DNA of 64,000 bases from NCBI GenBank assembly GCA_036630325.1, contig CP142730.1, positions 930,001 through 994,000 of the forward strand, read 5' to 3'. Origin of the DNA: Vairimorpha necatrix. Its lineage: Eukaryota. Shown in pieces: positions 5,942 to 63,151 of this stretch (position 1 is the stretch's first letter; the number at the start of each line of letters is the position of its first letter). Below the pieces are notes generated by a model. That model ran no database searches. It saw only the letters and a list, made by a program, of their open reading frames with translations, and was not told where the DNA came from. The translations under genes and the position numbers were made by a program.

Positions 5942-6679
5942 CATCAAATCTAATCTGATTGTTTCTATTGACCAAAATTTATTAAGCTGATTTTTTATTA
6001 TTTTCGACAAACCTCTTCTTTGTTTTAAATTTTTAATGTAAGGAGTTAAATTAACATATACTGCTCCTTTACGATCGAATATTTTTTGATTTCTAGATTA
6101 TATGTAGAACGTTCGTTATTTATTTATTGCGCAATTTAATTTAAACGATCTATAATTATTTAATTAGTAATTTAATACAAAAGTCATATTATACGTAAGC
6201 ACTTGTGTAAGTTTTTATTTTGCGAAGACTTTCGATTTCAGATATTTACAGTAATTTTCCCTCGATGATCGAGGAAAGCCTTCTTTAACAAACATCTTAA
6301 TTCTTTTCATATGACTAGATGAATATAAAAATCTTTGTTATAACCAATAGTTGAATACTTATAAATAGTAACTATGAATTATAAACAAGTTTTTAGATAT
6401 TTATTTAGGTAAACTTTTTTTAACAACAAATTTATTATATTTACATATAGAAAAAAGATTTATATGCTCTAATTATGTTTTTACACAATTACATATATGC
6501 AATAAATATAATGGTTTTCGAAAACTGAAAAGAACTCGACTTTTTAGTGATGCTGAATTGTAATTTTATATAAATCAACTTCAACGAGAAAACTCATTTT
6601 AAAATTTAAGATATTTTTGTATCATTTAATTTATCTAAATAAAGTATTTAAAAATTATAAAAGTAATTTTTTAGGTATA

Positions 6680-15552: not shown

Positions 15553-15679
15553 AAATAATTATATTTCGATATTTACTGTATTATATAAATCTGTAATAGA
15601 CACACATATCCAATTTTTTTTTGCAATATTTTCAAATTATTTAATTCATCTAAATATAACGATAAAAATTTAATTTTTT

Positions 15680-21700: not shown

Positions 21701-22857
21701 TTTCTCGAAATAAAGAATTTTTTCAATTGAAGATTCAGATAGATATCATATAAAACTACAGATGCTTGATAGAAAATTGCGCCTTACAATAGTAAGAAGA
21801 AATACTAATACTATTAAAATATTAAAAAATTATAAACAATTTCATAAGGCTTTAATTTTAAACTAACAACTTTATAAACTTTTTCTTAAAAATTTTAAAA
21901 AGTTTAGCATCTAAAAAATAAAAGCAAAATCTTAGTTTTTTTATGTATTTGTTTATAGTTTTCAACCATACATTGCATAGATTTGTTTTAAAAGATAAAA
22001 TTATTACTATAGATGATTGATTAACTACTATTTAAATTTTATCAGATTAAATCTTGTGCATATTCCTAATTATTGGTGGTAACTTGTTTAATGGACACAA
22101 AAAATTTGTTTTTATTAATTTGATATTTGAATGTTGAAAACATAATAAATATAAATTGAACACTCTTCAATAATTTGACATTATAAAATCTTTTCTAACG
22201 TATTATCTTCATGATAAATCAAAATCATTTAATAGTTAAGGACTTGTACACAAAATTTTAAAAAATACTATTTATTATTGAAATATACTTATAATATTTT
22301 AAGCAAATATATAAGATCATTTATATGAGAAAATGCATAAAGGCTAAATCTTCAAAGAATGTATAAATTTCAATCTATAGTTATAGTATAAAGAACTGCA
22401 TTATTTCGACCTAGAGAACAATAATTTTATTTTAAGAGCTCATATAAATTTTTAATTTGTAATATAGCCATGTTTTTTATAGAACATAATTTTTTATTAT
22501 TTAAAATTTTTTTATTTTTGTAATTTTAATACTAAGCCAAAACTAACAACATCATCATATACAAAAAGACCTTTTCCTTAAAACTATGCGCTTTTATTTA
22601 AAAGTAATTTAAGGGTATAACATTTTTTTGGATAAAAGAATAAAAATATTTCCAAACAGAATTGTCATCATTTTTTTTGTAATTATTCTTACTTAATTCG
22701 TTAATAGACAAAAAAATAAACAATAGAATGACAAGGTACTATTAATTTCAATTTTGCATTGTTTTTTTAAAAAAGTTCATTAATGCTATATACAAGTTTA
22801 TTTATCTAAAAAAATTTTAAATATGCTTAGAATCCTTGTAGATAAATATTTCAAAGC

Positions 22858-24234
22858 CTAACTTTTTGAGTTTATAGAAACTATGTTTTCTTTTAAATGT
22901 CCACGCTTACGACATTTGTATTTAAATAACATAAATAATATGCCAAATAATATAAAAATTAAAAAAATCAAAGCAGAGATAGATCCACAAACTCCCATAT
23001 AGCTAATTATATTTTTAAATTCCGTAGCAATTGTATCAAAAGTATTAGGTGTCTCGGTAGTTTGAATTGTTTGTAGTCTGGAAGATTTTTCATTTATTAC
23101 TGTATTAATTTCTGGGGCATGCGCGGAAACGAGACTTTCTGATTTTAATTTCATTGGTTCAGAAAGTTTCTGTGTCTCGATACTAAAAGTTTCAGTGATG
23201 TTTTCTAATCTTTCATTTTGTTCAATTAGGTTACTAATATTAATATCTGTAAAAATATTTTTAGTGACATTAAGGAATTCTTCATTAGTTTCTGTTAAAT
23301 TATAAAGCTCTGCAGTTATAGTTTCAGTAAAAATATCATAATTTTCATCGATTATTTCATTTATATTATTTATTTCCGCAATATTTGTTTCAGTAACATG
23401 CCCAAACTCTTCACTAGTTGCCACAGAAATCTTATTTAATTCAGTAGTAAGAGTCTCTTTGCTACTAAAATTACCGCATTTGCTATCGACTTCCCCATAA
23501 ATGTTATCTAATTCAGCAGTAATATTTTCAATCATATTTTCTCTAATGTATTTAGATAGAAAATCATCTGATAGAAAAGATGCATTTGAATTCGTACATT
23601 CCGCTTTGGTTAATAGATCACCATTCATTTTTAAATATTTTCTAAAACAATCCCAATCTTCCGCATCATTAAGACAATCATCAGAAGGTTTTAATTGGCC
23701 TTTACAAAATTTTATAACGGGCAAAGGTAGTTTAGCACTTATGCCATCTTGTATAAAACAAGTATGTTGTCTAATAATTTCTTTAATAGTCTCTGTAGTA
23801 GAACTGGCATCATTTATGACATCTTTATAACACGTACGTAATATATCATATAATATTGTAGAATCAGATATCATTTCAGCTAAAAAATCCTTTTCTTGTT
23901 TCGAAATAGTTACATTAGGATTATAATCGCCGTATATTAAAAATTCAAAGAATTTCTCTTTCATTATATTACTTCTATTGACAAAACTATTTTCTGAAGT
24001 GTCATTTGAAGTCATTCTTGCAATTATTTCATGATTTGTAATTGCGTTCCAAATAAAATCGTGAAAAACTTGGGCGTTTAAATCATACGAGTAATTTACA
24101 TACAATTGTGTGACCAATGGTTCACAAACATTTGGGCTATTAACAGCTTCTTTCAGACAATCATCAACATTTATACTAGTTTTTATAGATTTTATAAAAA
24201 ATATAACTGCATTTACATAAAATGGATATCTCAT
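22858..24234 (-). CDS. Cys-head surface-protein family member (458 aa, acidic repeat stalk)
   Basis: CCC-ATA-ATG start, all family motifs, stalk with ~22-aa degenerate ETITAELxNI repeats, TM helix and KYKCRKR tail. Confidence 0.93.
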   Translation of the reverse strand: MRYPFYVNAVIFFIKSIKTSINVDDCLKEAVNSPNVCEPLVTQLYVNYSYDLNAQVFHDFIWNAITNHEIIARMTSNDTSENSFVNRSNIMKEKFFEFLIYGDYNPNVTISKQEKDFLAEMISDSTILYDILRTCYKDVINDASSTTETIKEIIRQHTCFIQDGISAKLPLPVIKFCKGQLKPSDDCLNDAEDWDCFRKYLKMNGDLLTKAECTNSNASFLSDDFLSKYIRENMIENITAELDNIYGEVDSKCGNFSSKETLTTELNKISVATSEEFGHVTETNIAEINNINEIIDENYDIFTETITAELYNLTETNEEFLNVTKNIFTDINISNLIEQNERLENITETFSIETQKLSEPMKLKSESLVSAHAPEINTVINEKSSRLQTIQTTETPNTFDTIATEFKNIISYMGVCGSISALIFLIFILFGILFMLFKYKCRKRGHLKENIVSINSKS

Positions 24235-24666
24235 TATGGGTAGTAGAAAAAAAAAAATATTTATCTATAAATTAAGTTGACTTTAAAAATTTTATAAACT
24301 TTTTTTTAATATTTCGATATTGAATAGTTTTTTAGTAAAATTTTATGTTTGCAATAGGCAAAATAAGGTATATTAGATTTTTGACAGGTAAATTTAAAAA
24401 AACAAAAAAAAATAATAGTTACAGAAACATAATTTGAAATAAATTTATATTCAATTTAAAGAAATTTTATCGCAAAGTAACTTTTAGTACGGCCAAATGT
24501 GTTTTGAAGATACGAATTATCAAAATTGAAATAAAACATAATTAAATCTTATAAAAAAACAGTTTGATTGTATTTGAAAGACAAAAACAGAAATAAACAA
24601 ATTTATTTGATTTTTAATCATTTAAACACTTACTTTTCTTGATATACTAATAGGCTTTGCATTTTT

Positions 24667-29157: not shown

Positions 29158-29427
29158 TGTCATGTCCTCAAAACCATGACATCTGTGTTTTACTGTGTTA
29201 AAACTTTAATCAGTAAAACACTGCCCCGAACGAATAGTCTAAGGCGGTGATCTCTAACGATCGGACATGAAACGTTATGTTTCATAAATAAATATAAATA
29301 GTCCAAAAAAGTTAGAAGACACCGAGCATGAAGAGTAACTTTAATAACAAATCAAATAAAAAGAAATATAATACAAATATTTTAGAAATGTATTTAAAAA
29401 ACGGAGATATTACTCCAGTTCATGTCA
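29158..29427 (+). repeat. 5' LTR
   Basis: TGTCATG...CATGTCA, matching 31491-31760. Confidence 0.95.
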
Positions 29428-29440
29428 TTTTGAATTCAAA

Positions 29441-31480
29441 ATGACATTAAATGAACAAAACGAAAAACGAAATAACGAAGATGACTATATACAAGTCAAA
29501 ATCAAAGTTCCAGACTCGGACCTGGAATTTACGAAGAAATTAAAAATAATAAAAAACATCGAAAAATTCGATTTCATTCCTTGGTTTAAGGAATTTGAAG
29601 AAATAGCCACACAGAACAAATGGAATGCTGAACAAGGCATCATGATACTACGAAATTTAATTACTGATCGACGCCTAGAAGCGGATATTTTCATTACAGA
29701 TGCAGCAACAACCAAAAGAAACTTAATTAAACATATTTTTGAGCAAGATGCTAAAGAAATGTTGCAAGAAGCCTTTAAGGTAAAACAAATAGATTTTCTT
29801 TTTATAGAAAACTATTATGAAAAGATTTACAACAAGATAAGTATCTATAGCGCTTATTACGAAATAAGCAAATCGGAATTTAACAGACATTTAAGCGAAT
29901 GCTTTTATCAAGGGTTAGGAAGAAACTCTACGTTTGAAATAATAAAACATAACTTAGGCGAGAACGTCTTAAATGCTTATAATCACCTAAAAAATATTGA
30001 GAAAATGATTCGAAAGAAAGCAGAAACTAAGAAAATAAACAAGGTGTCTAATGACGAGCCAGTATATCAAGAAAGAGAAGGATCATACAGTAAAAAGTTT
30101 TCAAACAAGACGAATAACCCAAGATCTTCGTATATAAATAAATGGTGTTCTATACACAAAAACACTAGCCACGACACCAAAGACTGTTATTACAATAAAG
30201 ACCGACAAAATGAAAATAAGAAGAAAGAAACGAGAGAAAATCTTAAGATAATCAAAGAACCAATAAAAGTAATAAATGGAATTGAATTAGAAGGTTCAAT
30301 TGAGAAGAAAGAAACCAGATTTTTAATCGATACAGGTGCCACAAGAAATTTTATTAGTAATAAAAAGATCAAAGAATTGAAATTATCACCCATTGAAGAT
30401 GTGGAAATCCAAACAAAATTTGCCAATGAGCAAAAGGAAATAACTAACAAAACAGTACTTGTTAGAATAACATTAAAGAATCTAATGAAAGAAAAATACG
30501 TAAGATTTTATATATTAAAAAACAACAGCGATGATGTAATATTAGGAAATGAATTCCTAGTCGCAAACGAAGTAGTAGTAAATTACAAAGAAGGAACAAT
30601 TTATGTAGGAAGGGAGAGATTGAAATTTCTACATAACGACGAATGTTGCGAATTAGACGCAATGTTATTTGAGAAAATGAATGTGTGCAATCAGTGTATC
30701 GTATGTAAAGAAAACAAGGATTTTAAACAACAGAATCTAGAAAGAAATAAAATAGATAGCAGTGCACCATTTGAAATAATAAGCACAGATATTTTTGGTC
30801 TTTTTCTCCTGGAGGAGTTTGAGGGCGACTCTCTAAACCATAAGGGTTATATCTTGACCATAACCGATGTGTTTTCGAGATTCACGAGAATTTGGTTTGG
30901 TGAGAAGTTTAGGAGTGAGGAAGTTATTATGTGTTTAAACGAATGGAGTGATGATTTTGCGAAGCCTAAAGCGCTAATTTCGGACAATGGTCCGCAATAT
31001 AAAAGTAAAAAAACGAAAGATTATACTAATAAAATACAAATCGAACATCGGCTAATACCGATATATTACCCTCAAAGCAATGGAATTTCAGAACGTATAA
31101 ATCAAACAATTGCAGAAGTGCTGAGAATGAATATAGGAAAGAATATAAAACACATTATTATGCAAATTGAACATCGGATAAATAATAATGTTAATACCAC
31201 ACTGGGAATTGCGCCTATAGAAGCAATTTATAAGAATAGTTTTTATGACATTGAGAAAAGGGTTAATGTGCCATTTTTGCGAAACATACCTGCAGTTGAA
31301 GTGAACTATAAGCGACGTATCGCAGTAAATGACATTGTATACTTAAAAAATTATAGCAATAATAAACTCGAGCGGAAATACTATGGGCCGTTTAAAGTTA
31401 TGGAAATCGGTAAGAAAGGAAGTTGGGTTCGACTTAAAGACATGCCCAACTGGGTTCATATTAAACAGTTGAAGCTGTAG
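29441..31480 (+). CDS. Gag-protease-integrase polyprotein (679 aa) with no RT/RNase H
   Basis: Gag knuckle CSIHKNTSHDTKDC, aspartic protease LIDTGA...ILGNEFL, then directly CIVC, integrase STDIFG / ISDNGPQY / SNGISERIN and a GPF motif. No YxDD. Confidence 0.92.
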   Translation: MTLNEQNEKRNNEDDYIQVKIKVPDSDLEFTKKLKIIKNIEKFDFIPWFKEFEEIATQNKWNAEQGIMILRNLITDRRLEADIFITDAATTKRNLIKHIFEQDAKEMLQEAFKVKQIDFLFIENYYEKIYNKISIYSAYYEISKSEFNRHLSECFYQGLGRNSTFEIIKHNLGENVLNAYNHLKNIEKMIRKKAETKKINKVSNDEPVYQEREGSYSKKFSNKTNNPRSSYINKWCSIHKNTSHDTKDCYYNKDRQNENKKKETRENLKIIKEPIKVINGIELEGSIEKKETRFLIDTGATRNFISNKKIKELKLSPIEDVEIQTKFANEQKEITNKTVLVRITLKNLMKEKYVRFYILKNNSDDVILGNEFLVANEVVVNYKEGTIYVGRERLKFLHNDECCELDAMLFEKMNVCNQCIVCKENKDFKQQNLERNKIDSSAPFEIISTDIFGLFLLEEFEGDSLNHKGYILTITDVFSRFTRIWFGEKFRSEEVIMCLNEWSDDFAKPKALISDNGPQYKSKKTKDYTNKIQIEHRLIPIYYPQSNGISERINQTIAEVLRMNIGKNIKHIIMQIEHRINNNVNTTLGIAPIEAIYKNSFYDIEKRVNVPFLRNIPAVEVNYKRRIAVNDIVYLKNYSNNKLERKYYGPFKVMEIGKKGSWVRLKDMPNWVHIKQLKL

Positions 31481-31490
31481 GGGGGCAGAC

Positions 31491-31760
31491 TGTCATGTCC
31501 TCAAAACCATGACATCTGTGTTTTACTGTGTTAAAACTTTAATCAGTAAAACACTGCCCCGAACGAATAGTCTAAGGCGGTGATCTCTAACGATCGGACA
31601 TGAAACGTTATGTTTCATAAATAAATATAAATAGTCCAAAAAAGTTAGAAGACACCGAGCATGAAGAGTAACTTTAATAACAAATCAAATAAAAAGAAAT
31701 ATAATACAAATATTTTAGAAATGTATTTAAAAAACGGAGATATTACTCCAGTTCATGTCA
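31491..31760 (+). repeat. 3' LTR
   Basis: No mismatch to the 5' LTR seen by eye. Confidence 0.95.
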
Positions 31761-35075: not shown

Positions 35076-35892
35076 AACAATATTACGGAGGGTATAGTAT
35101 TTTTTATAACTAGTGTACTATCTAATTAAAAAAAAGTAACTCATTTAAATAATAAAATTGTATGATAAAATATACATATTCAAATTTGTTTAAGTATGTT
35201 TAATCGACATTTGTCTAGTTTTACATTATAAAATAAAGAAATGGAAACTAAAATACTTATCAATAAAATTGAATTTGGATCAAAATTAATATTTGACATT
35301 ATTGTAAATATTACTTGACAAAATTTTATTAGAATAAATTATATGGTTTGATAGCGTGCGAAAGGTACCAAACTACCTCTCCTCCTTAAGAGGTTCTTCT
35401 ATGAATTTTTTGAAAAACTGAATTGAAGCGTTACAAAAGCGAAGAAAAAATCTTTTATAACACTTATTGATTTTAAAAATGACAAAAAATTCTATATTGA
35501 TTATTTTCAAAAATCAAATTTTGCAATACGATCAGTTATAATTTGTGTTGCGCGATTCAAATTCTTTTTGATATTTATAATACTCTTTTAAATTTTATCT
35601 ATTTAAACTTTGTTATTTAAATTTAACTTCTTATTGATATTAAATTACTTATAAAATATTAAACTAAATATTACTAAGTCAATATTGCTAGATAAACTTT
35701 ATTCTATATTGGACTCAAATCCATGACATTAAAGATAAAGGTATTAACTAAATATTCAGCGATATATGATCTATTAATCTATTAAATTATTAATTTTAGT
35801 TTCAAAATTTATACAAGATTCATTTTTTACACAAATTAAAGCACGAAAACATCTAGATTAAAATAATTGGCTTTATCAGAAAGACTTAGGAG

Positions 35893-36988
35893 GGTTAAAT
35901 TGCGATGTTGACCCCCCCCCCACCATTAAAAAATAAAAAAAAGGGGTAAAATAAAAAAGGAATAAAATTATGCCCCTAAAATGAACATAAAGAATTTTAG
36001 AAAATTAATATACAAAAAAGAGGAATTATTTTTATTTCTTCTTGAAAAAAATATAATAAAGGTACCAATGTGCAATAAGTGCATGACACTCATGATCAAA
36101 ATTAAAAATGATTTGGACAAATATCGTTGTTACTTACGACGAAATGGGAGAAAAAACTCAAACAAAGGTAACATTTACAAAGAAAGCATTTTTAGAAGTT
36201 CTAGATTAGATATCGAAGATCTTTTAATTTTGCTGTGTGAATGGGTTTAAGGTGTAAGCAATGTTTCGGCTACTATCGAATTGGATATAGATAGTAGAAC
36301 CGTATCTTGCTGGTTTACGCGTTTTAATAACGCCGTATTCTTTTCCTATTTCACTACCTTCAAAACAAAACCATAGGGGGGTTTAAATTGCGTAGTTGAA
36401 ATAGACGAGACATTGCTTGTTGAAAGTAAAAACCATAACGGTAGAATCCTTCAATACCAAGATTGGGCTGTTGATGGAGTTGTAAGGGAAGACAGCAATT
36501 CTTTTTTTCGACATTGTTGAGAACCGATTAAGAACTACTCTTGTCGATTTAATTAAACGAAAAATCGCACCTGGATCTACAATTATTACTGATTGTTGGC
36601 GGGATCATGAAGGGTTTTCGGAACTATGTCCGGATTATTACTATTTACATTTAACTGTAAATCATAGCCAAAATTTTGTAAATCCAACAACAGGCGCCCA
36701 CACCCAAACAATTGAAGGAATGTGGTCTGTAATATAAAGGGAATTGCGCAAAGAAGGAACTTGCCATGGTTCTTTAATGAATCTAATTCGAATACTTTAT
36801 ATAGCTCGTTTGAAGTTAATTTCCAGAGAATCACTACTTGAAAGAATGTTATGCTTTTTTGAAGTTCAAAATATATGGTTTTTAAATTACGATTTAGCCC
36901 CTGAATTTGATTTTGAATTAATTGAATAAATTTTAGTTTTGTCTTTTTTTTATTTTTTTAGGGGTGGGGGCAACATCGCAATTTAACC
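35893..36988 (+). mobile_element. Merlin DNA transposon with disrupted transposase (35981-~36930)
   Basis: TIR GGTTAAATTGCGATGTTG...CAACATCGCAATTTAACC, degenerate 8-bp TSD CTTAGGAG/CAAAGGAG, CCCC-TAAA-ATG start, motifs [37 protein letters not shown]. Stops and frameshifts. Confidence 0.9.
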
Positions 36989-39900
36989 CAAAGGAGACAT
37001 CTGAGCCATAAATTTGATCACCAATCGAAACTCGGCACAAAGACTATGTCCTAAGCATTTATTTTATTTGATAGTCAGTTTTTACGACACACATCTTTGC
37101 TTTAATCTCTTAATTGATCGTAATTCTGTTTAATTTTATAAACAGAGGTTCGTTCGCTCATAGACAGCATCGAATGGCCAGCGCCGAAATTATCGGGGTG
37201 TTGAGAACCATACTTTAGTATAAGATAATACATTATAAAAGTAATTTGCATTGAAGAAATATATGTATGCAAACACAACCTCTAAAACAAAATAAAGTCC
37301 AAGCACATCGTCGCAAAAAAACCTCAAAAGATTTAATTTTATCTTGTCGATGTTAAGGAATAAAACTGTATAAAGATTGGTTTAACTGGAAACTAACAGT
37401 AGTACATTATTTTCCAAATGTATCTTTATTTCCATTTTTAAAATCAAAACCTTCAAAAACTCGTTTGCAAGTTAAAAAAAAATAAACATATAATATTTAA
37501 GCTATGATTCAAATTGATAACGCAAAGAATTAATTAAATATTAATAAAATTTTACAAAAAACAAAATATTTTCTAAATGGCAAACTAGTCTTCTCAGAAT
37601 CAAATCAAGTTGAGAGTTTTTATAAACTCTTTGACTGCTTATATTAATATCTACATAGATTGCATTGTAAAAAAGAACTAGTTGACAGTTATAATAAAAG
37701 TTTTTATATTTTTTATTTGTCTGTATTATTGGGGCTTTTGCATATTTTAAAAAGCTTCTAAATAATAAAAAATAATATTCATTTTTGCCTTTTTTTTGCT
37801 TATCTTATATTTTATACCCTTCAAAGAAAAACTTCTTTTATAGTTCATTAATAATAATAGAATGTTAAACAATAAATTTATAGGCTAACGCCTTTTACAT
37901 TTAAAAACCTATTGGGAAAATTCTTTTTTATTTGTTTATTGACTCATTGGGTCGCCATTAAAATATATTTAACAGAAGATATTTATGACATCTGTTATTG
38001 TGATGTAGATCTTAACATAATATTTTCAACTACATAACGGATCAACAAAATAGTCTTTAGCAGGTTTATGTTACGGAAGCTTTTGTTATACTACATGTCT
38101 AAAGAATAATGATGATTGTTGAGAACGTGTATTTAATAAATTTAGCCTTGAACTTACAATTATCTTTAACAATGATGATTCTTCTGATAAAAAAGAAACA
38201 TTCTAGACACTTTCCGGCTTAAAAAGACAGTGTAATAAAAAAATTGATAATTCTATTAATGATTTTTATATAAAAAGGGTTGGTGATCTAAGTATATTTG
38301 ACACTAATATAAAAAACAAAAAAAACAAACATAAGTTTTTGTTATAAAAGCTTTGTAAATGGTAGAAATTTATTCGAATTAATGATTAAGAGTAAAATAT
38401 AATGATATTAGAGAATACTATCAATGTATTTGGTCAAAAAATTTAAAAATAAAAATTTAGAAGAAGTTTATACTTGTTATAATTATTTCTTGATTTCTCT
38501 TGATATACTTTAGATATTAAAAACCGCTTTTAATGTGTTATTTATCGGTAATTGGTCGTTTCTAAATAAGGCTATTATCGCTGTAAAATAACGATAAATA
38601 GAATGTCGTTTATTCGTAATGTTCATTCTTATAATACATATTTATTCATATGTATTGTGTGAGCTTTATATTTAAAAATGTAAAATTGCTAATACCAACA
38701 TACTAGCAAAAAATTAAGGCTCAAACTGATTCTTTGTTTACTATTTATAAAGTGGAAATCACATATGAGTTAACAATTTTTTTAAGACAACTCATAAATA
38801 AGATGAAACTATTTTAAATTATAGTCACACGATTTTTGTATTCAAACTTTTCATAACAACATCACATCATAATTTCATAGGTTTATTCGTTATATTATTT
38901 TGCAAGATAGCCTACGCTCAATACTAAATTTAATCACTCTAGAAAAAAGTTGTATTTAATTTAAATTTAAAATCTTTTTAATTATTATATTTTTAAGGTT
39001 GTTTTGCATTTATAAATCAAAATTTAATAAATTTCATAAATCTACATGAAGTTAATTTAAATAGTTAAACGTAAAGCTAAGAATAAAAAAAAATATAAAG
39101 AAACAATGGAATACAGATTTACAAATTTTTTATAATTATTATGCATAAAACTTAGTTGTTAAAAGATTTTTAGACGGTCACTTTTCGTTGTAATCTACAT
39201 GGAATTTTTACGCAAAGAAAGTTTTATTTTATTCAATAACAAAACATTTATTTGAAAATCTATCACAAATGAATAAGCCCATATTTTAAAGGTCATTATT
39301 TAAGTGTTACTATAAAAATAAAATTTTGCTGCTTAGGTCCTAATTATAATATCTTGTTAAAAACAATAATAAAGTTTTACACAACACACTTTAGCATTGC
39401 TCAAGGACTATTTTATACCGAATTATTTCTGTAGCTTATAGCGAACGCATGCTAAAAGTGTGACATTATTACACGGCCTTAAAATTTCGTTTTTGTAGTT
39501 ATAAAAAAAATATCAATTTGGTTAATTAAATAGAGAAATTTTTTAATACTAATTAAACACAACGAATTTAGAAAAAAAAATCTTCTCTGAGTTTGTAACA
39601 TTTTTTATAATTGAGTATAAGTAAATTCATTGGTTTATATATATTATTATTTATATTTTAAATTGGAAAATTTAAAAAATACTAAAAACATGATTAAAGA
39701 CTAGTTTTGTAATTATATTTCGAATAAAAAACGACCAAAATAATATCTTATTTTATATCTTATTACAATTTAAAAAATTGATGTTTGAAATGAATATGAG
39801 AAAATTTATTCAAAGTCAAAAATTTTAAAATAATTATTACAAGAAAAAATATGAAACAAAACAAACTTTGGTTATTATTTGTACTTTATTATGTACATGT

Positions 39901-41370
39901 TGTTCGCTTATATTTAAGTTGGTTTTTCTTCTTTATATAAAAATTTAAACTGTTTATAAAGGTATTTTCCTCAATAAAGCTTATGTTCGATGAAAAAAAA
40001 AAATAAAGACCAATAATTTAAGAATAACATTAAAAAATTTGTTATATTATAAAACTCAAAATGATTTATTCCTTAAAAACAACTTAATCCATGAAGATTA
40101 TTTTGAATTTATTTATATTGTTCGTCTTATCTACAAAGTCAACATATGTTAAAAAGATCACTTTTATAATAATATAACTGCAGATGTTTTTATTAAAAAC
40201 CACTTTTTTTACAATAAAATTGTGTAACAATACATATTATCTTAATAGTATAATTTTAGATCAATTTCACATGTTTAACGATTTTTCAGAAGATTACGAC
40301 AGATATTGAAAAAAAAGGTCATGTGCTTAAAACAAGTAAAGGCGCATACAACTATAAAAGTATAGACTAATACGCCAATAAAATAGAAATAATAAAGTTT
40401 TAAACATCAAAAGATTTAATTAGATCTTACATAACGTATAAACATTTTTTTGAAATATTTCAAAAATTAAGTATCTAAAAAAAATCTCATTTTATTACAT
40501 GTATCGGCTTAAAGTTAGCTTTCCGTACATTACAAAACTATGTTTCAATTAAGCCAATTTATGCGATTATTAAAGAAAACATACAAACAATAAACCTAAT
40601 ATTTTATCAACATAAATCGTTCATATTCTCTAGTTCTTGATCGTCACTCGTTTCATAGACAACTAACTTGTACGTAATATTTACAGTTTATATATTTTAG
40701 TGTTGAAAACATAATAGACACATATTTAACTCTCAGGAACAACCAGAAATTAATAAACTTTTCTAAAAATAACATCTATATGACAAATTAAAAAGACTCA
40801 ATGGTTACCAACGTTTCCAAAATGCCAAAAATACTCATAAAAATTAAAATTTACTTTTGGTATTTTACATAAAATATGAGAAATTTTTGTAGAAAAAGTG
40901 CAAATGGAATCTAAAAGCTTTTAGAGAAATATTTGTTTTAATACTTTAAAAAAATTATTAAAACTGCATAATTTCTTGTTAAAATAAATATATTAACATT
41001 TAATTTTTTTATATTTTTAAAATCTGTAATATTGTCATTTTTTTTGTAATTTTAGTAACAAGACAAAACTAAAAACAATTAATAGTTAAAGACCTTTTAC
41101 AAAAAAAGTATATGCTTTTATCATAAAGACATTTTAAGGCTCTAAATGTGTTTTAAATATGATGATTATATTTGTACAAACAAAATTGTCATAATTTTTT
41201 TAATATTACCATGCTTACTTCATATGGTTTAATTTAAAAAATACGTATTATTGACAAATTTGTATCTTTTTTACATGAAAAAAACAATTAAAAACTATAT
41301 ACACGTTTACTTATCTAAAAATTTTAATAGTTATTAAAAATTTTGTAAATAAATATTATAAAGCCTATCT

Positions 41371-42738
41371 TTATGAGGATATAAAAACTAAGTTTTCTCT
41401 ATAATGTTTACGCTTACGAAATTTGTATTTGAACAAAATGAATACTATTCCAAATATTATAGAAATTATAAAAATTAAAGCAGCTGCAAATCCCCAAACT
41501 CCCATATAGCTAGTTATGATGTTGAATTCTGTATTAGCTGTATCGAAAATATTTGGCGTTTCTGTAGTTTCAAATGTTTGTACTCTGGAAGATTTTTCAT
41601 TTATAACTGTATTTATTTCTGGAGCATACGTGGAAACAAGACTTTCTAATTTAAATATTGGTTCAGAAAGTTTCTGTGATTCTATACTCAAAGTTTTAGT
41701 AGTATTTTGTAATCTTTCATTTTGATCAGTTAGGCTATTATTATTAATATCTGTGGAAATATTTTCAGTGACATTAAGTAATTCTTTACTAGTTTTTGTT
41801 GAATTATAGTGCTCTGCTGCAATATTTTCACCAATATGATCATAATTTTCATCGATTATTTTATTTATCTTATTAATTTCTGCAATACTAGTTTTAGTAA
41901 TATGCTCAAACTCTTCACTAAATGTTTTAGAAATGTTATTTATTTCTGAAATATGAGTTTCATTCGTAGTATCATAATCGCATTCATTATCGATAAACAT
42001 AGAGATATTATCTATCTCAGCAGTAAGATTTTCAATCATATTTTCTCTAATAAATTTAGATATCAGATCATTTGGCAAGTAAGATATAGTCGAACTTAGA
42101 CATTCTGCTTTAGATAGTTGATCACTATCAAATTTTAAAAATTTTTTAAAACAATCCAAATCTACCGTCTCATTTAAACAATTTTCAGCAAGGTTTAATT
42201 CACCTTTACAATATTTTATAACTGGCAACGGGATATTATCACTTATTCCATCTTGGATAAAACAAGTATGTTGTCTAATAATTTTTATAATAGCTTTTGT
42301 TGTAAAATCGGCACTATTTATGACATCTTTATAACACGTACGTAATATATCATATAATATTGTAGCGCTAGATACTATTTCAGTTATAAAATCGTTTTCT
42401 GCTTTCGAAACAGTTATATTAGGATTATAATCGCCGTATATTAAGAATTCAAAAAATTTCTCTTTCATTATCTTACTTCTTAAGGCGAAACTAATTTCTG
42501 AAGTGTCATTTGAAGTCATTCTTGCAATTATTTCATGATTTGTAATTGCGTTCCAAACTAAATCATGGAAAATATGATATTTTAAATCATACGAGTAATT
42601 TACATACAATTCTGTAACCAATGGGTCGCAAATATCGAGGCCATTAACAGCTTCTTTCAGGTAATCATCAACATTTATACTGGTTTCTATAAAATTTTTA
42701 AAAAATATAACGGTATTTAAATAAAATGTATATCTCAT
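41371..42738 (-). CDS. Cys-head surface-protein family member (455 aa); paralog of 22858-24234
   Basis: Start revised from 42819 to 42738 (CCC-ATA-ATG, MRYTFY aligns with MRYPFY). Same repeat stalk, TM helix and tail. Confidence 0.92.
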   Translation of the reverse strand: MRYTFYLNTVIFFKNFIETSINVDDYLKEAVNGLDICDPLVTELYVNYSYDLKYHIFHDLVWNAITNHEIIARMTSNDTSEISFALRSKIMKEKFFEFLIYGDYNPNITVSKAENDFITEIVSSATILYDILRTCYKDVINSADFTTKAIIKIIRQHTCFIQDGISDNIPLPVIKYCKGELNLAENCLNETVDLDCFKKFLKFDSDQLSKAECLSSTISYLPNDLISKFIRENMIENLTAEIDNISMFIDNECDYDTTNETHISEINNISKTFSEEFEHITKTSIAEINKINKIIDENYDHIGENIAAEHYNSTKTSKELLNVTENISTDINNNSLTDQNERLQNTTKTLSIESQKLSEPIFKLESLVSTYAPEINTVINEKSSRVQTFETTETPNIFDTANTEFNIITSYMGVWGFAAALIFIISIIFGIVFILFKYKFRKRKHYRENLVFISS

Positions 42739-43154
42739 TATGGGTAGTGGAAAAAAATTATTTGTATATAAATATAAGTTGACCTTAAAAGTTTGTATAT
42801 CTTTTTGTACATTTTTCATAATTTTTGGTATTTTAATAAAATTTTATGTTTTTAATATGTAAAATTAAGTATATTGGATTTTGACACGTCCACTTTTTCA
42901 ATTAACAAAATTTAAAATCGGCTAAACAAAATCTTTGTAATAAAAACATAACTTTATTAAAAATTGTATATTACTGTAACGAAAGATTCTAAAATAAATG
43001 TAACTCGAAGATACATTTATTAAAATAAAAATAAGTCATATATGTCTCGTACATTGAAACACATTAAAACGTATCTGAGATAAAAAAGACAGACATAGTT
43101 TAAATTTATGCAATTTATACATTTTTAAATACTAAATAAAAAAAATCTAAAAGA

Positions 43155-47648: not shown

Positions 47649-48560
47649 TTAAGAATAATTAGATACTTTAATTCTACATTTCTTAGATCCTTTATTAAAA
47701 TATATGTAACCCAAAAACATAAAAATCATGCCGATTATAATAAAACTTAAAAGATATATAAACCCAGGTCGTTCCCAGAATTCAATGTGATTAGCTTTGT
47801 TGTTCATGGTTTCTGTTGAATTAAACGCAAATACACTAGAATTATTAGTTATATTGTTAAATTTGTTTATACTATTATTTAAAAAACTTTCGCTTTCTGA
47901 GTATTCATTATCTACTGAGCAAAAAGCTTTTAGGACCTTATCGTGTTTTCTGTTAGCTTCATCGACTATATATTTCAGTCCTGTTGTTCCAAAACATTTT
48001 ACAAAATTAAAACCTAAACCTTTACACATTTTAAAAACAGGTAATGGTAAATTTCTACTTATACCATTCGGTACAAAACATGTATGTAACTTAATTATAC
48101 CTCGTATTGTTTCTTCTGGATTTTTACTATCATTTATAATATCTTTATAACACATACGAAACATATCAAAATATTCAATCGCTCCACTTTTCAATTCCTC
48201 GATAAATTTTCTTTCTGGTCTTATAAGAGTTTTCGATATGTTAATATCCCAATTTTTGAGACTTAAATTAGACAAATAAACATCTCTTAACTGAATTCTT
48301 CTATTTGAAAAACTTCTCTCTGAATTATCATCTTGTGTTAATCTTTTAAATATTTCAAGGGTTGTTACCGTATCCCAAATAAATTCACTGAATAAAATAC
48401 CATAGTTTTCTGGCAAATTATGATTATTAATTTTGCTATCTAATGATTCACATACATTGGTGCCATTAATAACAGAATATAAAAAATTGTCTTCGCCATT
48501 AGATTTTACCACACCTAACATGAAAAATACTGAACCACAAAAAATTTTCAATAATCTCAT
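47649..48560 (-). CDS. Cys-head surface-protein family member (303 aa, short stalk)
   Basis: Start revised to the ATG after CCC-TTT (the ORF track used TTG at 48569). Family motifs, TM helix and tail present. Confidence 0.92.
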   Translation of the reverse strand: MRLLKIFCGSVFFMLGVVKSNGEDNFLYSVINGTNVCESLDSKINNHNLPENYGILFSEFIWDTVTTLEIFKRLTQDDNSERSFSNRRIQLRDVYLSNLSLKNWDINISKTLIRPERKFIEELKSGAIEYFDMFRMCYKDIINDSKNPEETIRGIIKLHTCFVPNGISRNLPLPVFKMCKGLGFNFVKCFGTTGLKYIVDEANRKHDKVLKAFCSVDNEYSESESFLNNSINKFNNITNNSSVFAFNSTETMNNKANHIEFWERPGFIYLLSFIIIGMIFMFLGYIYFNKGSKKCRIKVSNYS

Positions 48561-48724
48561 AAAGGGCAAATTTTTTTTTGTTATTTATATAAAGCAAAAT
48601 ATCTAATTTAAATAAAATATTTTTTGATTATTAAATTGTTTAAATTTTTGCATCTTCTTACATACAAATCAATATCTTCAATTTTAATTAGGTATATTAA
48701 ATTTTACGCAAATTAAATGTTATA

Positions 48725-49120
48725 AAATATAAAAACAACCTCCATGCAGTAGAAACAGAAAAGAAACATAAATACGACTTGCTCGCAAATCATGTGGCTT
48801 CTCTCTACAAATACAAGCCGAAAATTATTCCTTATGTGATGACGTGGGATGGAATAGTAACTAATTTTCACCGTACGCATATCAAAGTGCTCAAATAAGA
48901 ACCCAGAACGAAAGCATATATACAGTCAAGAGTCCTTAAAATGACTTTAGAAAGCCTAACTATGTCAGCCAGACATGGGCTTGATACAGATCAGGAGGGG
49001 GTTTGAGAGCCCAATGAGTGAATCTCAAAAGGAAGTCCTGGAACTGCCAGATGAGACTGTAAGCGTATCTTGTGAAAAGTAATTAATAAGCCGAATATTA
49101 TACCCAAATAAATTATATAT
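48725..49120 (+). mobile_element. Non-LTR retrotransposon 3' fragment (REL type)
   Basis: NNLHAVETEKKHKYDLLANHVASLYKYKPKIIPYVMTWDGIVTNFHRTHIKVLK*...KAYIQSRVLKMTLESL, homologous to the fragments at 14251 and 14637. Confidence 0.82.
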
Positions 49121-51624
49121 TATAAAATTCAAAAAACTTCAAGTTTAAAAATGTTTTAAAAGCATATTTTACGTTTTTTAAAATAAAACTAAATTCATTA
49201 AATATTTAATTTCAAAGTCGAAAAATTTATAAAAACAAAAATTATAGTAAAAAAAAATAAACCTAGGATTTTTTTAAAGATTTTAAGATTTTTAATTTCT
49301 AAGCAAATTTGTAATAAATGTAAAACAATAAAAATAATTAGTTTTGTGTAAATTAAAAATCATAACGATTCTAATGGTGGATTTATACGTATATAAAGCT
49401 TAGGAATTAGGTTTCAATATAAATTTAAATATAATTGCGCACGGAGAAATTTTAAAAACATTATTTAAATAGTTTAAGAGAAGTCCTACTCTATCAATGA
49501 CTTTTGTCCATTTTTTATATTATTTATTTCTAAAAAACTTTTGCAAAATTTCATTTTAATTTATTTATCAAAGAATTACAATTTTATTTTTACTAAAGTG
49601 AACTAAGTCCTAATCAAACTTATTACAATGTATTTTGTAAAAAAATATTAATTTTTAAAAACATGATTTTTAATTTCTAAAACATAATTTATTAAATAAA
49701 TTCTAGTATTTAAGATAGATATTATTTTTATAAAAATAATTAAATAATTTTTTAAAGAACCTTTATTTAAAAAACATCATTTTTTAGAAAAAATATCTTT
49801 GTAATAACTAATACATGTAGATTTTGTAAAAAATTGTAAAGATAAATGCAGTTATAAAAATCTCAAAATTGATATAAAATTTTTATAAGCGTTATAATCG
49901 AATTTATAACACAAGAATTTTTAAAAACAAAACACAAATGCTATATAATATTCTAGTGTACGCTATTTTAAAATAAAACTCCAATTAAATTACAAATTTA
50001 ACTGTAATTTTGAAAATTTGACCTATATTAATGCGTCTCTTTTTATCATCGAATTTATTGTTTATACCTTACATTTAATGTTTTACATTAAAAAAGTTCG
50101 GGTATAGTTATAAAAAATTTTATTACGGATTAATAGGTCTAAAATGATGTATAATTTTAATTATATATTTATTCTTCGCCAGATGATCATTCAATCAGTT
50201 TACAAAATATATAAATTTCTTAATCAATCTAAGAATACTTCTCATAATAAAATATACGGACCACGAATGAATTATACATTTAGTTAAATCTAAATTTTCT
50301 TATATTTTTTTTGCTTAGAATTTATAACATGTTTTATTATGGTAATTATAAAAATAACCTAAAATACAAAACTCTCGTTGTCAACTATAAAAAATGTATT
50401 TTATTCTTGTAAAATACATCAATCATTTTTTTAATACATTATTTTTAAATTTTGAAATTCGTAGAAGATTTGAAAAAGTAAATTTAATACAGTCTCATAA
50501 TAAATTACCATAGCATTATTTTTCCTTTTTTAACGAATTGTAATCTGAAAGAATTCGACGAGAACAAATTAATATATAGATTAATAAAACATTTCTTTTG
50601 CTTGTAATTATTTATTAAAAACACATAAAATAGATAATTTTTTTTAATTTTGATCAAATATAAAAAAAATGTGTTATTATTTGAATATTCGAATAGATTT
50701 TTTTTTAACATATATAACACATTGTTTTTGTTTTTATATAAAGAATAATTTACGACATGATCGTAGTCATTAAAAGCTTTATAATTTACTTAATGTTTCT
50801 TTTTATTTTTTTTAATAAATGAAATGCTGTTAGTGAAATATCTTATTAATTTAATTGTCATTGAATGGTATTTGCGACAAAATCAAAAAAAAACCTTTTT
50901 AATATAATTATTTTTTTAAAAAATTAGTAAACAGGAATACAATATCATAATGTATTCTGAATCCGATATTTTTGATCTTTTCTCAAATTAAAATAGAATT
51001 AAATTTTCCGGTACAAAAAGTGTAAACAGTGAATAAAGTATAATGCTTATTTTGAAGATGTTTATATGTACAGTATAAGTTTCACTGTTTAAGTCGACTT
51101 TTAAATGACAAATTGATAACATATAACTTGTTTACATAATTAGTTGTAAAAATAGACAACTTAACTCTATGAATTAAAAAAGCCACGAAAACTTACAATT
51201 TTAAGTATATTTTCTTTATAACATCACAATTTCACCTGCAAATAATTAACTTAAATATCTTATGCTTATTACAAAATGAAATGAAAATTTCTGAAGCAGA
51301 TTATAAATAAAAATTTACTTAACATTGTAATATCTAGTTTAAGCAAAAATATTTTATTTTTCTATTTATTATGCTCTTTGAACAAATTGTATAGATTTAT
51401 TGTTATTTGACGTAACAGACTTTTTTATAAAACAAATTAGACAATAAAAATTATAATCTATTGAACTCCGGATGTTTTATAAATTTTTGATCATTTAAAT
51501 TTATTCATATACAACATTATTCATGTGTAAGTATTAGGGAAAAAAACTATATACAATTTATTTTTCATTACAATAATAAAATTTTTTGAAAATATGTTTT
51601 TTTGAAAGATAAAGTAGTCTCAAT

Positions 51625-53571
51625 TTAAACTAAAGAATACTGCCGATACCTTCTGTTGCACCTTTTTTTGTAACGCCAAATTCCCAACACTATAAGAATA
51701 AAACTAAAAAATATAAAAAGCACTGTTTTATCAAAACCTCTATTTTCGAAGGAATTAGTATTTGCAATTTCTAACATTGTTAAACGCTCTGATTTTATGT
51801 TATCAGATATAATATAGTTTTCAGAGGCATCATAATTATTATTATAATTAGTCGTGCTTTCTGTAAAAGTATTAGAATCAGTAGTTGTATCTATAATTTC
51901 ATTGAAACCAATAGGCATTGTAGAAATATATTGATGACCTGTGATAGAGTCGATTATTGTATTAAAATCATAATTTTTTTCGGTTTTAATAGTAGATTCG
52001 ACATTATCCCGCTTGATGCCGTTAAAATCGGTGGTAGTATCTGTAGGGATATCAAAATCTGTTGTAGATTTAATTACACTATTAGAAGAAATAGTTGCAT
52101 CGGAGAATAAATTATAATCGGCATTAGACACTATAAACTCCTTGAAATCAGTAGTTGTCTCAGTAATATTATTATTGTATTCGATAGTTATGTCAGTAAT
52201 AATATTAAAATATTTAGTATAATCAGTGATGTTATTTTGATTAGTGTTTGTCTCCGTATTTATTAGACTTTCTTCAGTAGCTTGATCAAAAAATTCATTA
52301 TTACTTTCAGTAGTCGTTTCATTAAGTACATTTTTTATTATCGTAGACTCTGGATTTTTTTTATATTCCGTTGTAGTTTCTATCATATTAAAATCTGTAT
52401 AAACTTCAGTAATCATTTTATTTTCTATAGTTGCTTCTGTTTCATTATTACTTTTTATGTTTTCTCTTGTCATACAATTTGTAGCAATATCTGTACTTAA
52501 ATAATATTCTGTAGTTATATCGAGTTTGCTATTAAAATTGCGAGTTGTTTCAGAACCACTAGAATAATTTGTAAATTTATAAATAAAATCATAATCCATC
52601 GTATTTCCAGTTATGTTCATATTATTTGAACTTTGCTTTATATTTTTATCAGTTGTAGCTTTATAAATATCATCCATCTCTGTAGTAATTTGAGTACTAT
52701 ATTCAAAAAATTCAGTTTCTGTTGATACATCATTTTTAAATAAGTTGGTGTTAGTAGGCTCATTTCCAATGGCATAATTTAAATAATTAAAAGTTGTATT
52801 GTCAATATAACTTTCATTATTGTTATTTGTAGTGTCATATAAACTATTAATCTCAGTTGTAGTTTCAGCTGTGTTGTAGTCTTCTGTAGTTGTATAAGTT
52901 ATATTTGTAATGTTGTAAATTGGTATAAAACATTCGGCTTTAGATACTTGATCGAGTTTTCTGTTGGCTTCATCGACTATATATTTCATTCCTTTTGTTC
53001 CAAAACATTTTACAAAATTAAATCCTAAACCTTTACACATTTTAAAAACAGGTAATGGTAAATTTCTACTTATACCATTCGGTACAAAACATGTATGTAA
53101 CTTAATTATACCTCGTATTGTTTCTTCTGGTTCTTTACTTTCATTTATAATATCTTTATAACACATACGAAACATATCAAAATATTCAATCGCTCCACTT
53201 TTCAATTCCTCGATAAATTTTCTTTCTGGTCTTATAAGAGTTCTCGATATGTTAATATCCCAATTTTTGAGATTTAAATTAGACAAATAAACATCTCTTA
53301 ACTGAATTCTTCTATTTATTAAACTTCTCTCTGAATTATCATCTTGTATTAACCTTTTAAATAAATCAAGATTTGTTACCGTGTCCCAAATAAATTCACT
53401 GAATAAAAGACCATGGTTTTCTGGCAAATTATGATTATTAATTTTGCTATCTAATGATTCACATACATTGGTGCCATTAATAACAAAATATAAAAAATCA
53501 TCTTCGCCATTAGATTTTACAAAACCTAACATAAAAAATACCGAACTACAAAAAAATTTATATAATCTCAT
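51625..53571 (-). CDS. Cys-head surface-protein family member (648 aa, long mucin-like stalk)
   Basis: CCC-TTT-ATG start, head ~89% identical to 47649-48560, ~400-aa Thr-rich stalk with ~10-aa periodicity, TM helix and RYKKR tail. Confidence 0.93.
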   Translation of the reverse strand: MRLYKFFCSSVFFMLGFVKSNGEDDFLYFVINGTNVCESLDSKINNHNLPENHGLLFSEFIWDTVTNLDLFKRLIQDDNSERSLINRRIQLRDVYLSNLNLKNWDINISRTLIRPERKFIEELKSGAIEYFDMFRMCYKDIINESKEPEETIRGIIKLHTCFVPNGISRNLPLPVFKMCKGLGFNFVKCFGTKGMKYIVDEANRKLDQVSKAECFIPIYNITNITYTTTEDYNTAETTTEINSLYDTTNNNNESYIDNTTFNYLNYAIGNEPTNTNLFKNDVSTETEFFEYSTQITTEMDDIYKATTDKNIKQSSNNMNITGNTMDYDFIYKFTNYSSGSETTRNFNSKLDITTEYYLSTDIATNCMTRENIKSNNETEATIENKMITEVYTDFNMIETTTEYKKNPESTIIKNVLNETTTESNNEFFDQATEESLINTETNTNQNNITDYTKYFNIITDITIEYNNNITETTTDFKEFIVSNADYNLFSDATISSNSVIKSTTDFDIPTDTTTDFNGIKRDNVESTIKTEKNYDFNTIIDSITGHQYISTMPIGFNEIIDTTTDSNTFTESTTNYNNNYDASENYIISDNIKSERLTMLEIANTNSFENRGFDKTVLFIFFSFILIVLGIWRYKKRCNRRYRQYSLV

Positions 53572-54697
53572 AAAGGGCAAATTTTTTTTTGTTATTTATA
53601 TAAAGCAAAATATCTAATTTAAATAAAATATTTTTTTAATTATTAAATTGTTTAAATTGTTGCATCTTCTTACATACAAATCATTATCATCAATTTAAAT
53701 TAGGTAAATTAAATTTGACAATTGGCAGTTCGTACATAATAATATAAACTAATGAAAGCTAAAATACTTCTTCAATCAAATCTAATCTCGATTGTAAACA
53801 AATATTAAACAAATTAAAAAATATATTGATAGAAAAATTCATAGAATAATACTTGATATAGATTTAAATATAAAGAATGTATGTAATAAAAACATAAAAT
53901 TTAATTGAATATATTGATTGTTTTTTTACCAAATCTGTACATGTTAAAAATACTTACAATATGAATTGAAATTATATATGACCTAAATTTTTTGATATTT
54001 ATCTAATTACGATGGTATTTTGCTTTATATAATTTCGACTCAAATAAATATTTTCAAATTTTTATGAATAAAATTTTTAAATTAATAATAGGAAAAAAAA
54101 TAATACAAGGTTAAATTATCCCCAAAATTTTGTGTAATTTTTACTTATAATTCTTATTTCTATAAATTATTTATTTTTATAATCGATTGCAAAAAGACAT
54201 GCGACTTCAAATGCTTCATTGCTGTTTGTAAACAAACAATCTTATTAGATATTTCTATGGATTTTACTATTTAAAAATGTCATACTAAACAATAACACAG
54301 TTTTTTCGATCAAGAAATATTTTTTTCGAATTAATAATCGCTATAGGGGCTTTATAACGCACTCTAGACCTCTATACAAAAGATATAATAATTTGTTTGT
54401 TTTTAAAAAATAAATGAAAAATTATTTTGATATCTAACAGACTTTATAATACTTATATATCTCATATTTATATAAAAAGATATACTAAATGGCTAATTCG
54501 AAGAAAAAAAATGATATTGTTATTCTTTTTAAGAAATTGGTTCTGTCAAAATACAATAACCCTAGTGTTATATATGTAGCAACAAAATCTAATTGTTGTG
54601 AAAATATATATTTAAGAAATTTAATCCTTAGCATACAATTATCATTAACACTAACAAAAAAAATAAAAGACCTTTTATAGTTAAAACATTATTTTTT

Positions 54698-61933: not shown

Positions 61934-63151
61934 GGCGCATCGGTCAGAACCCGGACTTTTTTTCTCTCTAAGGGTCCCCCCTTGGAGAGAAACGAAAAAA
62001 AATAATAATAATAAAAAACCATTTTATTTTAAGAAAACTTTGATAATTTCAATGAAGAACTCTCTTGAACTTTTGATGTTTTTATAAATTGCACATCTTC
62101 TTCTCCACTTAAATTCTTCCAAAAAAATCAGGGATAGCACTTTCTTTGATCCCTTTTCTAGCTATTATATCACATTTAAGATGTGACCAAACACCTTCTA
62201 TTAAGTTTGTGGTCTCTCCTGCTTCGTTTTTAAAGCCTTCATCATGAATTACAACGCGATGATCACCGTTGATAGATTCTACTGCAGCGGGATAAGATTT
62301 ATGACCATCAGTTATGCATGTAGTGTCGTTTTTTATATACTTTTTAAAAAACCGAGTCATCGTCTGTATAGTCCGGTTAGGTACTATTTCGATTCTCAGT
62401 TCTAACGTTCGCTCGTCTATCGTCCCTACCAACCACACACAGTTTTTGACTGTGTCATATCTTTCCGATGGAGATTTGACAAACTTCTCCTTTACTATAA
62501 CCATTTCATCGGTCTATGTCACTTCTTCAAATCCTCCAATTTTTTTTTGGTGTTTGAGATTTTCTTTTTTCAGTGCTTCGTATATTTTTTTTTTAGCCCT
62601 GAAGACACTGGAAGCAGACACCCGGGAATTTTTGTTTAGGTTTAGTGTAGACTGCTTTTCAGTGAACGAATACAGAATATACAAATAATTATATATAGGT
62701 ATTCGGGGATTAGAAAATGAAGTTTTATCAAAAACTCCGATTGATGTTCCACATACAGTCTTCCCCCTACACTTAAACCGGTGGCAGTTCATGTACGAAT
62801 CGTCCGGTGTTAATATCATTATACCAGGACATTTCGTACATTCCATTGTTGTTTTTAGTAGATTTTCATCCACTAACCAACATATTGCCTCATGTGGGTC
62901 TTGGAATATTTTTGACCTACTGTCAAGCGGCTCCATACATACCATAAGGGTAAAATATTTTTGAAAAAATCATCTAAAAAACAAAAATGTTTATAACTCA
63001 AGAAATGTTAATGCGAATGAAATTTAAACAAATCTGTATAATTTCGACTCTTGGGGATATGGTTCGTAAAAAACATTTCCCCACTTTACGGTCAGTACCC
63101 GGATTCAGTACGTAAAATATTAAGGAAAGTCCGGGTTTTGACCGTTGCGCC
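61934..63151 (-). mobile_element. Merlin DNA transposon, young, with near-intact transposase
   Basis: TIR GGCGCATCGGTCAGAACCCGGACTTT / AAAGTCCGGGTTTTGACCGTTGCGCC and perfect 8-bp TSD GATTTTTT (61926-61933, 63152-63159). Confidence 0.94.
62029..62945 (-). pseudogene. Merlin transposase with one in-frame TAG and a probable 3' frameshift
   Basis: CCC-TT-ATG start. ORFs 62514-62945 and 62109-62504 are in frame (GGFEEVT*TDEM). Motifs ITDGHKSY, TNLIEGVWSHLK. A shifted frame continues LEEFKWRRR. Confidence 0.88.

Follow-up and report, generated by a model that had tools for sequence, protein, structure and literature searches.

Two neighbouring genes of Vairimorpha necatrix share a promoter and head and differ in stalk, transmembrane segment and tail

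The window analysed here is a stretch of 64,000 nucleotides (nt) from the genome of Vairimorpha necatrix, a microsporidian parasite of insects (contig CP142730.1, positions 930,001 to 994,000; G000:C5:930001-994000 in the coordinates of this work). Its GC content is 20-33%. Two neighbouring genes in it, called A and B, encode single-pass membrane proteins with a six-cysteine helical head and are members of a so far uncharacterised Vairimorpha family. They have nearly the same promoter and head, followed by unrelated stalks, transmembrane segments (TMs) and tails. The arrangement is a real, apparently one-off product of recombination; fungal adhesins and another microsporidian have already furnished examples of the kind. 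The features that carry this finding are listed below.

47649-48560, minus strand: gene A, an open frame of 303 amino acids (aa) with a hydrophobic N-terminus, a six-Cys head, a 53-aa stalk, a TM from residue 268 and a short basic tail
51625-53571, minus strand: gene B, an open frame of 648 aa with a head like that of A, a 398-aa stalk, a TM from about residue 613 and a basic tail
47940-48707, minus strand: shared tract, A copy, 147 nt upstream and codons 1-207
52951-53719, minus strand: shared tract, B copy, 147 nt upstream and codons 1-207
52930-52950, minus strand: codons 208-214 of B, a family-consensus block that includes the last Cys
51625-52929, minus strand: stalk, TM and tail of B, single copy in the genome
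34240-35084, minus strand: pseudogene of the A lineage, its head equally close to A and to B (78% in DNA)

Self-BLAST gives a single tract common to A and B, 94.67% identical over 769 nt, with 40 differences and one gap of 1 nt. The two copies agree at 140 of 147 bases upstream of the ATG and at 588 of 621 within codons 1-207. An earlier description of this DNA, the sequence-only reading, had noted about 140 bp of near-identical upstream sequence and heads differing at about 24 of about 214 residues; both observations hold, the second exactly (24 differences in residues 1-214). The synonymous divergence (dS) of the heads is 0.06. The same reading let the similarity end at the last Cys. The breakpoint is in fact between codons 207 and 208 (47940/52951), seven codons before Cys214: within codons 208-214 A and B differ at 11 of 21 nt, against 40 differences per 768 nt for the tract (binomial p ~2e-9, the boundary having been picked post hoc). 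A max-chi-square scan of synonymous sites places a step at codon 209 that none of 300 permutations reaches. The break is not at a domain boundary, as had been supposed, but falls within the last helix of the head; in the structural model Cys214, just beyond it, is predicted to bridge back to the hairpin region. The differences inside the tract are unevenly spread, with 320 columns at 98% identity (1 of 200 permutations; the best of 36 pairs tested). A direct test for patchiness within the tract does not reach significance (p 0.09 and 0.06), and a scan of the 36 pairs for short converted tracts finds nothing besides A/B that survives multiple testing.

Beyond the head the two genes do not align. 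The reading had given the stalks as unrelated and about 50 and 400 aa long, in agreement with the measured 53 and 398, and the TMs, tails and 3' flanks cannot be aligned either. The post-head protein alignment scores 56, a value matched by 41 of 300 shuffles in which stalk, TM and tail were kept apart (z 1.2); the corresponding DNA has z scores of 0.2 in the stalk, 1.8 at the end of the coding sequence and -1.2 in the 3' flank. Codons 208-214 of B differ from those of the gene at 41371-42819 at 2 of 21 nt, and from those of seven other paralogs at 4-5. The nearest intact match of the A block differs by 8 nt, and A and the pseudogene have this derived version in common. Judged by these letters, the B block is derived from outside the A/pseudogene lineage. 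Since it is the family consensus, the sixth Cys of B and everything after it come from another full member of the family, and the junction is a homologous, in-frame crossover between paralogs.

The pseudogene, whose frame is broken by about 20 indels when it is aligned globally in a simple way, had been credited with the short-stalk layout, and rightly: from the stalk through the TM to the 3' flank it matches A (160/210, score 104, shuffle maximum 42). In DNA the A-pseudogene matches after the Cys reach z 6.9 in the stalk, 9.6 at the end of the coding sequence and 7.3 in the 3' flank, and the pseudogene is the only match of the A tail. At the sites where A and B differ the pseudogene agrees with A 17 times, with B 13 times and with neither 10 times, so that the changes since the event are symmetric between A and B. 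The relationships are different upstream of the tract, where three further features are needed.

53720-53849, no strand: far-upstream DNA of B, homologous to that of the pseudogene (93/126, z 10.2) and absent from A
48734-49120, plus strand: about 390 bp of a high-copy repeat, beginning 27 bp beyond the end of the tract in A
49121-51624, no strand: spacer from the B stop to the repeat, single copy, with no homology to the upstream DNA of B or of the pseudogene

Upstream DNA of A beyond 48707 matches neither B nor the pseudogene. In a three-way comparison the ancestry switches at one point: upstream B goes with the pseudogene, in the head A goes with B, and after the Cys A goes with the pseudogene. 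The identity of B and the pseudogene upstream (74%) is about equal to that of A and the pseudogene in the 3' flank (72%). The repeat at 48734 holds a 54-codon frame with matching frames elsewhere as long as 1199 aa, and we take it to be the 3' end of a retroelement without long terminal repeats (non-LTR). By eye, a possible duplication of 14-16 bp flanks it in AT-rich sequence, and the DNA beyond it matches neither the upstream of B nor that of the pseudogene; the idea that the repeat deleted the original upstream of A finds no support in this. An origin of the B stalk from tandem repeats is likewise not supported, its best internal repeat (11/25) being equal to the shuffle maximum.

Two genes bear on where the tails come from. 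The best family match of the B tail is the tail of gene G (L010:5107-6159, minus strand), about 4 kb to the left of the window, with a protein z score of 8.6 (0 of 300 shuffles) and a DNA z score of 10.8, the next-best being 4.5. The head of G is also the closest intact relative of the A/B head (68-69% in nt, 45-46% in aa; tree support 83/51). In the set analysed, the A tail has its best match in the gene at 10045-11028 (z 5.4-6.0), whose head belongs to the sister clade (94/91). A tree of 23 tails is star-like and leaves B and G ungrouped, and approximately unbiased (AU) tests on it reject neither A+B (p-AU 0.33) nor B+G (p-AU 0.34). The link between the B and G tails is thus one of local alignment.

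The evidence leans, without great force, towards a single event in which the promoter and head of the A lineage replaced the front of an older, G-related gene with a long stalk. B would be a chimera, made when two tandem paralogs recombined once by ectopic homology: the A/pseudogene lineage would have supplied no less than ~280 bp upstream, the predicted signal peptide and codons 1-207, all joined in frame to codon 208 of the long-stalk gene, the crossover lying in the conserved last helix, which would be the last homology among paralogs before the variable stalk. In this haplotype the event would have been non-reciprocal, either a long-tract gene conversion or a template switch; by the latter route a foreign tail and spacer would have been inserted between two copies of the promoter and head. 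The outcome would be one head under one proximal promoter, with two spacers of very different length and different cytoplasmic tails. Direction and repair route are both what we infer from the pattern of matches. The tract has high identity between older or unrelated flanks, the donor is kept, and neither a reciprocal product nor a duplicated flank is seen in the one haplotype at hand, as expected of gene conversion; a simple unequal crossover would have duplicated tail and spacer, both of which are single copy, and is excluded. The equality of the 74% and 72% identities is expected if the upstream of B came from the A lineage. The A tail, with its best match in the sister clade of the head tree, fits the place of its head, and G, as the closest intact head and the best match for the B tail, is a plausible recipient lineage.

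Several points weigh against this reconstruction. It requires a later loss of the far upstream of A, or loss of the tail donor. Val209, beyond the break, is common to A, B and the pseudogene; this is a matter of one nucleotide, and V occurs in ~5 of 49 other members. When the upstream match of B and the pseudogene is taken over 580 nt with laxer scoring, its score of 112 does not rise above the shuffle maximum of 126, so that only the block of ~130 nt is supported as homologous. B is congruent with G from end to end (head 46% in aa, tail z ~9), which fits a native B equally well, and the star-like tail tree neither places B with G nor rejects either grouping. The sequence-only reading had held that recent recombination or conversion put the promoter-head cassette on a different stalk, with the pseudogene as witness to the older state. 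Recombination or conversion between paralogs stands; the polarity is not fixed by the pseudogene alone, since B, with a tail like that of G, the closest intact gene by its head, could be native. In such a history, which is possible though doubtful, an old crossover put the B upstream and head on a short tail and so founded the A/pseudogene lineage, and conversion between the neighbours later re-homogenised the proximal promoter and head, which by then were all that A and B had in common. The congruence of B with G over its whole length would then be explained, as would a tract that ends on both sides where homology ends, the Val209 shared beyond the break and the uneven spread of differences in the tract, and the missing far upstream of A would need no later loss. 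Two events with the same 3' breakpoint would be required, however; the B-pseudogene upstream is no more diverged than the A-pseudogene flanks, the patchiness test is not significant, and the A tail already fits its head lineage.

Two other explanations were weighed. In one published assembly V. necatrix is tetraploid and its pseudo-haplotypes are ~96% identical (PMC10759460; papers are cited here by PMC number), a value near the 94.7% of the tract, so that a misjoin at the B junction, or two alleles set in tandem, has to be considered. Two independent sequencing runs, X1 and X2, were the only ones listed, with small word shares (0.14 and 0.09); no RNA data set is among them, which has no bearing on expression. 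A 502-nt contig of X1 spans 47791-48292 with 8 differences and bridges the A junction; at 10 diagnostic sites it has 7 A letters and 3 B letters, as though head types were mixed or collapsed in the sample. Pieces of the B stalk occur in X1 and X2, together with B-like head pieces at 53331-53485 and 53417-53590. Among the matches listed no contig bridges the B junction, and 52748-53315 is uncovered in both runs, although such holes in coverage prove nothing. Protein homolog searches (with A, with the head profile for longer proteins and with residues 150-420 of B for shorter ones) and a metagenome scan yielded no allele from another haplotype or strain. An artefact is nevertheless quite improbable: the 648-codon frame of B crosses the junction unbroken, the sixth Cys of the consensus block that follows is in register, the A junction is bridged, the B-like head and B stalk occur in both runs, and the copies differ at 40 sites and in their unique flanks. 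Even if they were alleles, the two forms would need a recombination event. Rearrangements between homeologues have been described in other microsporidia (PMC12558613), and, given polyploidy, the A/B arrangement may be specific to a haplotype. A history with no recombination at all, in which a whole gene was duplicated and the B stalk then diverged very fast and expanded by repeats, would draw on the range of stalk length in the family (20-499 aa) and on tails that outpace heads in close pairs. It is hardly credible when, at a head dS of 0.06, neither the TM and tail nor the non-coding 3' flank can be aligned, other pairs with close heads retain tails 68-98% identical, the B stalk has no internal repeat above shuffles, and codons 208-214 of B are nearer to other paralogs than to A.

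The family was collected by three genome searches (15.0 Mb, 12 contigs) and from 39 stretches taken out for analysis. Of 74 open reading frames (ORFs) with a length of 150 aa or more, 56 match the head profile, a lower bound for the family; 28 of the 56 lie in C5 0.90-1.125 Mb, 9 of them in the window. The common layout is a hydrophobic N-terminus, a head of ~195 aa, a stalk of 20-499 aa, a TM and a basic tail. By hydropathy, 51 of the 56 have a whole head and a later hydrophobic segment, and six Cys are invariant in 46 aligned heads (in A they are C37, 137, 161, 179, 189 and 214). Of ten proteins looked up at NCBI, five are named 'putative SP-containing membrane protein' and two 'putative SP-containing protein'. 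Against 1.84 billion proteins the head profile has 52 hits, 48 of them 100% identical to sequence of this genome; the remaining four are one V. necatrix protein, one from V. ceranae (hhalign 96.8%) and two Logan proteins. No description of the family or of the A/B event was found in the literature searched, which lay mostly outside subscription papers. A term search of PMC10759460 finds the generic label 'SP-containing membrane protein' 190 times; section 9 of the paper is silent on this family, which its network figure or supplement may group. The database gene models P0003, P0012 and P0024 are cut, or fused to other sequence, relative to the plain genomic frames, so that public annotation hides some family TMs.

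The head model is confident (predicted local distance difference test, pLDDT, 88.5; predicted template modelling score, pTM, 0.85) and is predicted to consist of helices and one hairpin. Neither A, B nor the 46 heads have a Pfam match above the cut-off; a RIFIN match on the TM region of a neighbour was set aside (18 bits, cut-off 32). The head has no match under E 0.6 among Protein Data Bank (PDB) sequences, and Foldseek finds none for the model at E 0.001 in PDB and viral models. The best VIA-align match is the HD phosphohydrolase 2q14_A (Z 5.4, root-mean-square deviation 4.2, 143 aligned), which is weak and below the level that the tool takes as meaningful. HD-domain phosphohydrolases take the first four VIA-align ranks and recur several times further down, aligned over residues 1-190 with weak Z scores of 4.0-5.4. 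Such a lack of structural matches does not show that the fold is new.

The C-termini of A and B consist of the TM and then a basic tail of ~15-20 aa, and neither has a glycosylphosphatidylinositol (GPI) anchor signal. This topology suggests type I surface proteins. A disulfide-bonded, helical head is predicted to face the outside of the parasite cell at the plasma membrane, where it is probably a binder of a host or parasite partner. The B stalk is rich in Thr, Asn and Ser, with TTT[DE] motifs scattered along it; in fungal adhesins, Ser/Thr-rich stalks lift the heads (PMC8712946). TM-bearing members of comparable large families in Nematocida are exposed to the host cytoplasm (PMC5423893). Depending on the method, the ratio of non-synonymous to synonymous divergence (dN/dS) of the A and B heads is 0.3-0.7 over codons 1-207; in the mature head it reaches as much as ~0.85. 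This amounts to weak constraint at few sites. An unbroken frame of 648 codons beside a decayed pseudogene suggests that gene B is in use. The pair offers a clean, nucleotide-mapped case of a new microsporidian surface protein, in which the crossover keeps both the frame and the sixth Cys, and a natural pair for testing the effects of stalk length and tail with head and promoter nearly constant. As a mechanism the event is ordinary; the family itself, with its many members and confidently modelled head, is the larger by-product.

The suggestion that the family diversifies combinatorially is not borne out. In the pair tests, made on 51 intact members (five were dropped for a truncated head or lack of a TM), 7 of 1275 pairs have heads at least 70% identical. 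Six of them keep their tails (z 27.9-88.5), and A/B is the only discordant one (z 2.9). With heads at least 50% identical, 13 of 14 pairs have a tail z score of at least 7.1 and one lies below 7. The test is blind to older swaps, as tails lose alignment with age. Among matches of at least 74% and at least 150 nt, A/B is the only pair whose DNA match is limited to upstream and head, and other pairs with heads at 72-99% identity have tails 68-98% identical in DNA. It is unlikely that the family as a whole is a modular surface display, in which tandem neighbours convert one another's promoter-head cassettes time after time and only stalks, TMs and tails evolve apart. If it were, one binding head, of a fold without a clear match among solved structures, would be tuned in height and in signalling tail, and A/B would be the youngest visible case. 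A weak hint in this direction is that heads are below tails in synonymous divergence in three of the six other close pairs (nominal p 0.024, 0.044 and 0.047, uncorrected), with no step at the end of the head; tail alignment can inflate this difference. In the tandem pair L038/L039 (C1:939643-940863 and 928025-929254) divergence is lower in codons 1-160 than in the remainder (max-chi-square p 0.02), possibly a second, partial conversion of the head without exchange of tails.

Non-allelic gene conversion and the formation of chimeric genes between tandem duplicates are a general mechanism. A/B resembles such conversion in its high-identity tract with diverged flanks and its retained donor, and differs in that the state before the event is unseen, so that conversion and template-switch insertion are not distinguished. 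The NT-Als domain of the ALS adhesins has a beta-sandwich fold, and the ricin B domain is a beta-trefoil. As an ALS adhesin A/B was rejected, the six conserved Cys standing against 8 in NT-Als and the head model being helical; as a ricin B lectin it was rejected for want of a Pfam match and for its helical model. The closest likeness in fungi is to the ALS-IFF/HYR and ALS-FLO hybrids (PMC8712946), which have a Cys-bonded N-terminal head, a Ser/Thr-rich stalk and a recombined head and stalk. Unlike in those hybrids, the partners in A/B are of one family, the protein ends in a TM and cytoplasmic tail instead of a GPI anchor, the head model is helical, and the promoter moved with the head. In interD, a microsporidian multigene family of Encephalitozoon cuniculi (PMC4704409), recombination splits the genes, as in A/B, into D1, with the promoter and the N-terminal part, and D2, the C-terminal part; interD, however, is subtelomeric and has several recurrent breakpoints, whereas A/B lies at 0.98 of 1.30 Mb and reflects one event. 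Membership in interD (DUF2463) was rejected, with no DUF2463 Pfam match for A, B or the 46 heads. In size, TM enrichment and genus restriction the family fits the definition of a microsporidian large gene family (PMC5423893): such families have at least 10 members, a signal peptide or TM and no known domain, and are genus-restricted and locally duplicated. The present one is unrelated to any Pfam family tested, and host exposure was shown in Nematocida.

The window contains further family members and mobile DNA. An older duplication of 3.2 kb (21238-24389 and 39801-42889, 73% identical) comprises a whole family gene with its flank, head and tail being congruent; a patch of 63 identical nt in its heads is not significant after multiple testing. 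A decayed member with many stops lies at 2127-2800. At 29158-31760 two direct repeats of 270 bp, 100% identical, flank a 679-aa frame that has aspartyl protease and integrase matches and no reverse transcriptase match; this is, to judge from the sequence, a very young, probably non-autonomous LTR element, of which L010 (C5:921437-923473), with a frame of 678 aa, may hold a further copy. An ISXO2-like transposase at 62112-62945 is split over two frames; a second, decayed element, its inverted ends seen by eye, lies at ~35890-36990, upstream of the pseudogene. The segments 6611-7849 and 15626-16844 form a duplication, 88.6% identical, with a 164-aa frame that has no Pfam match, and a third, partial copy occupies positions 1-502.

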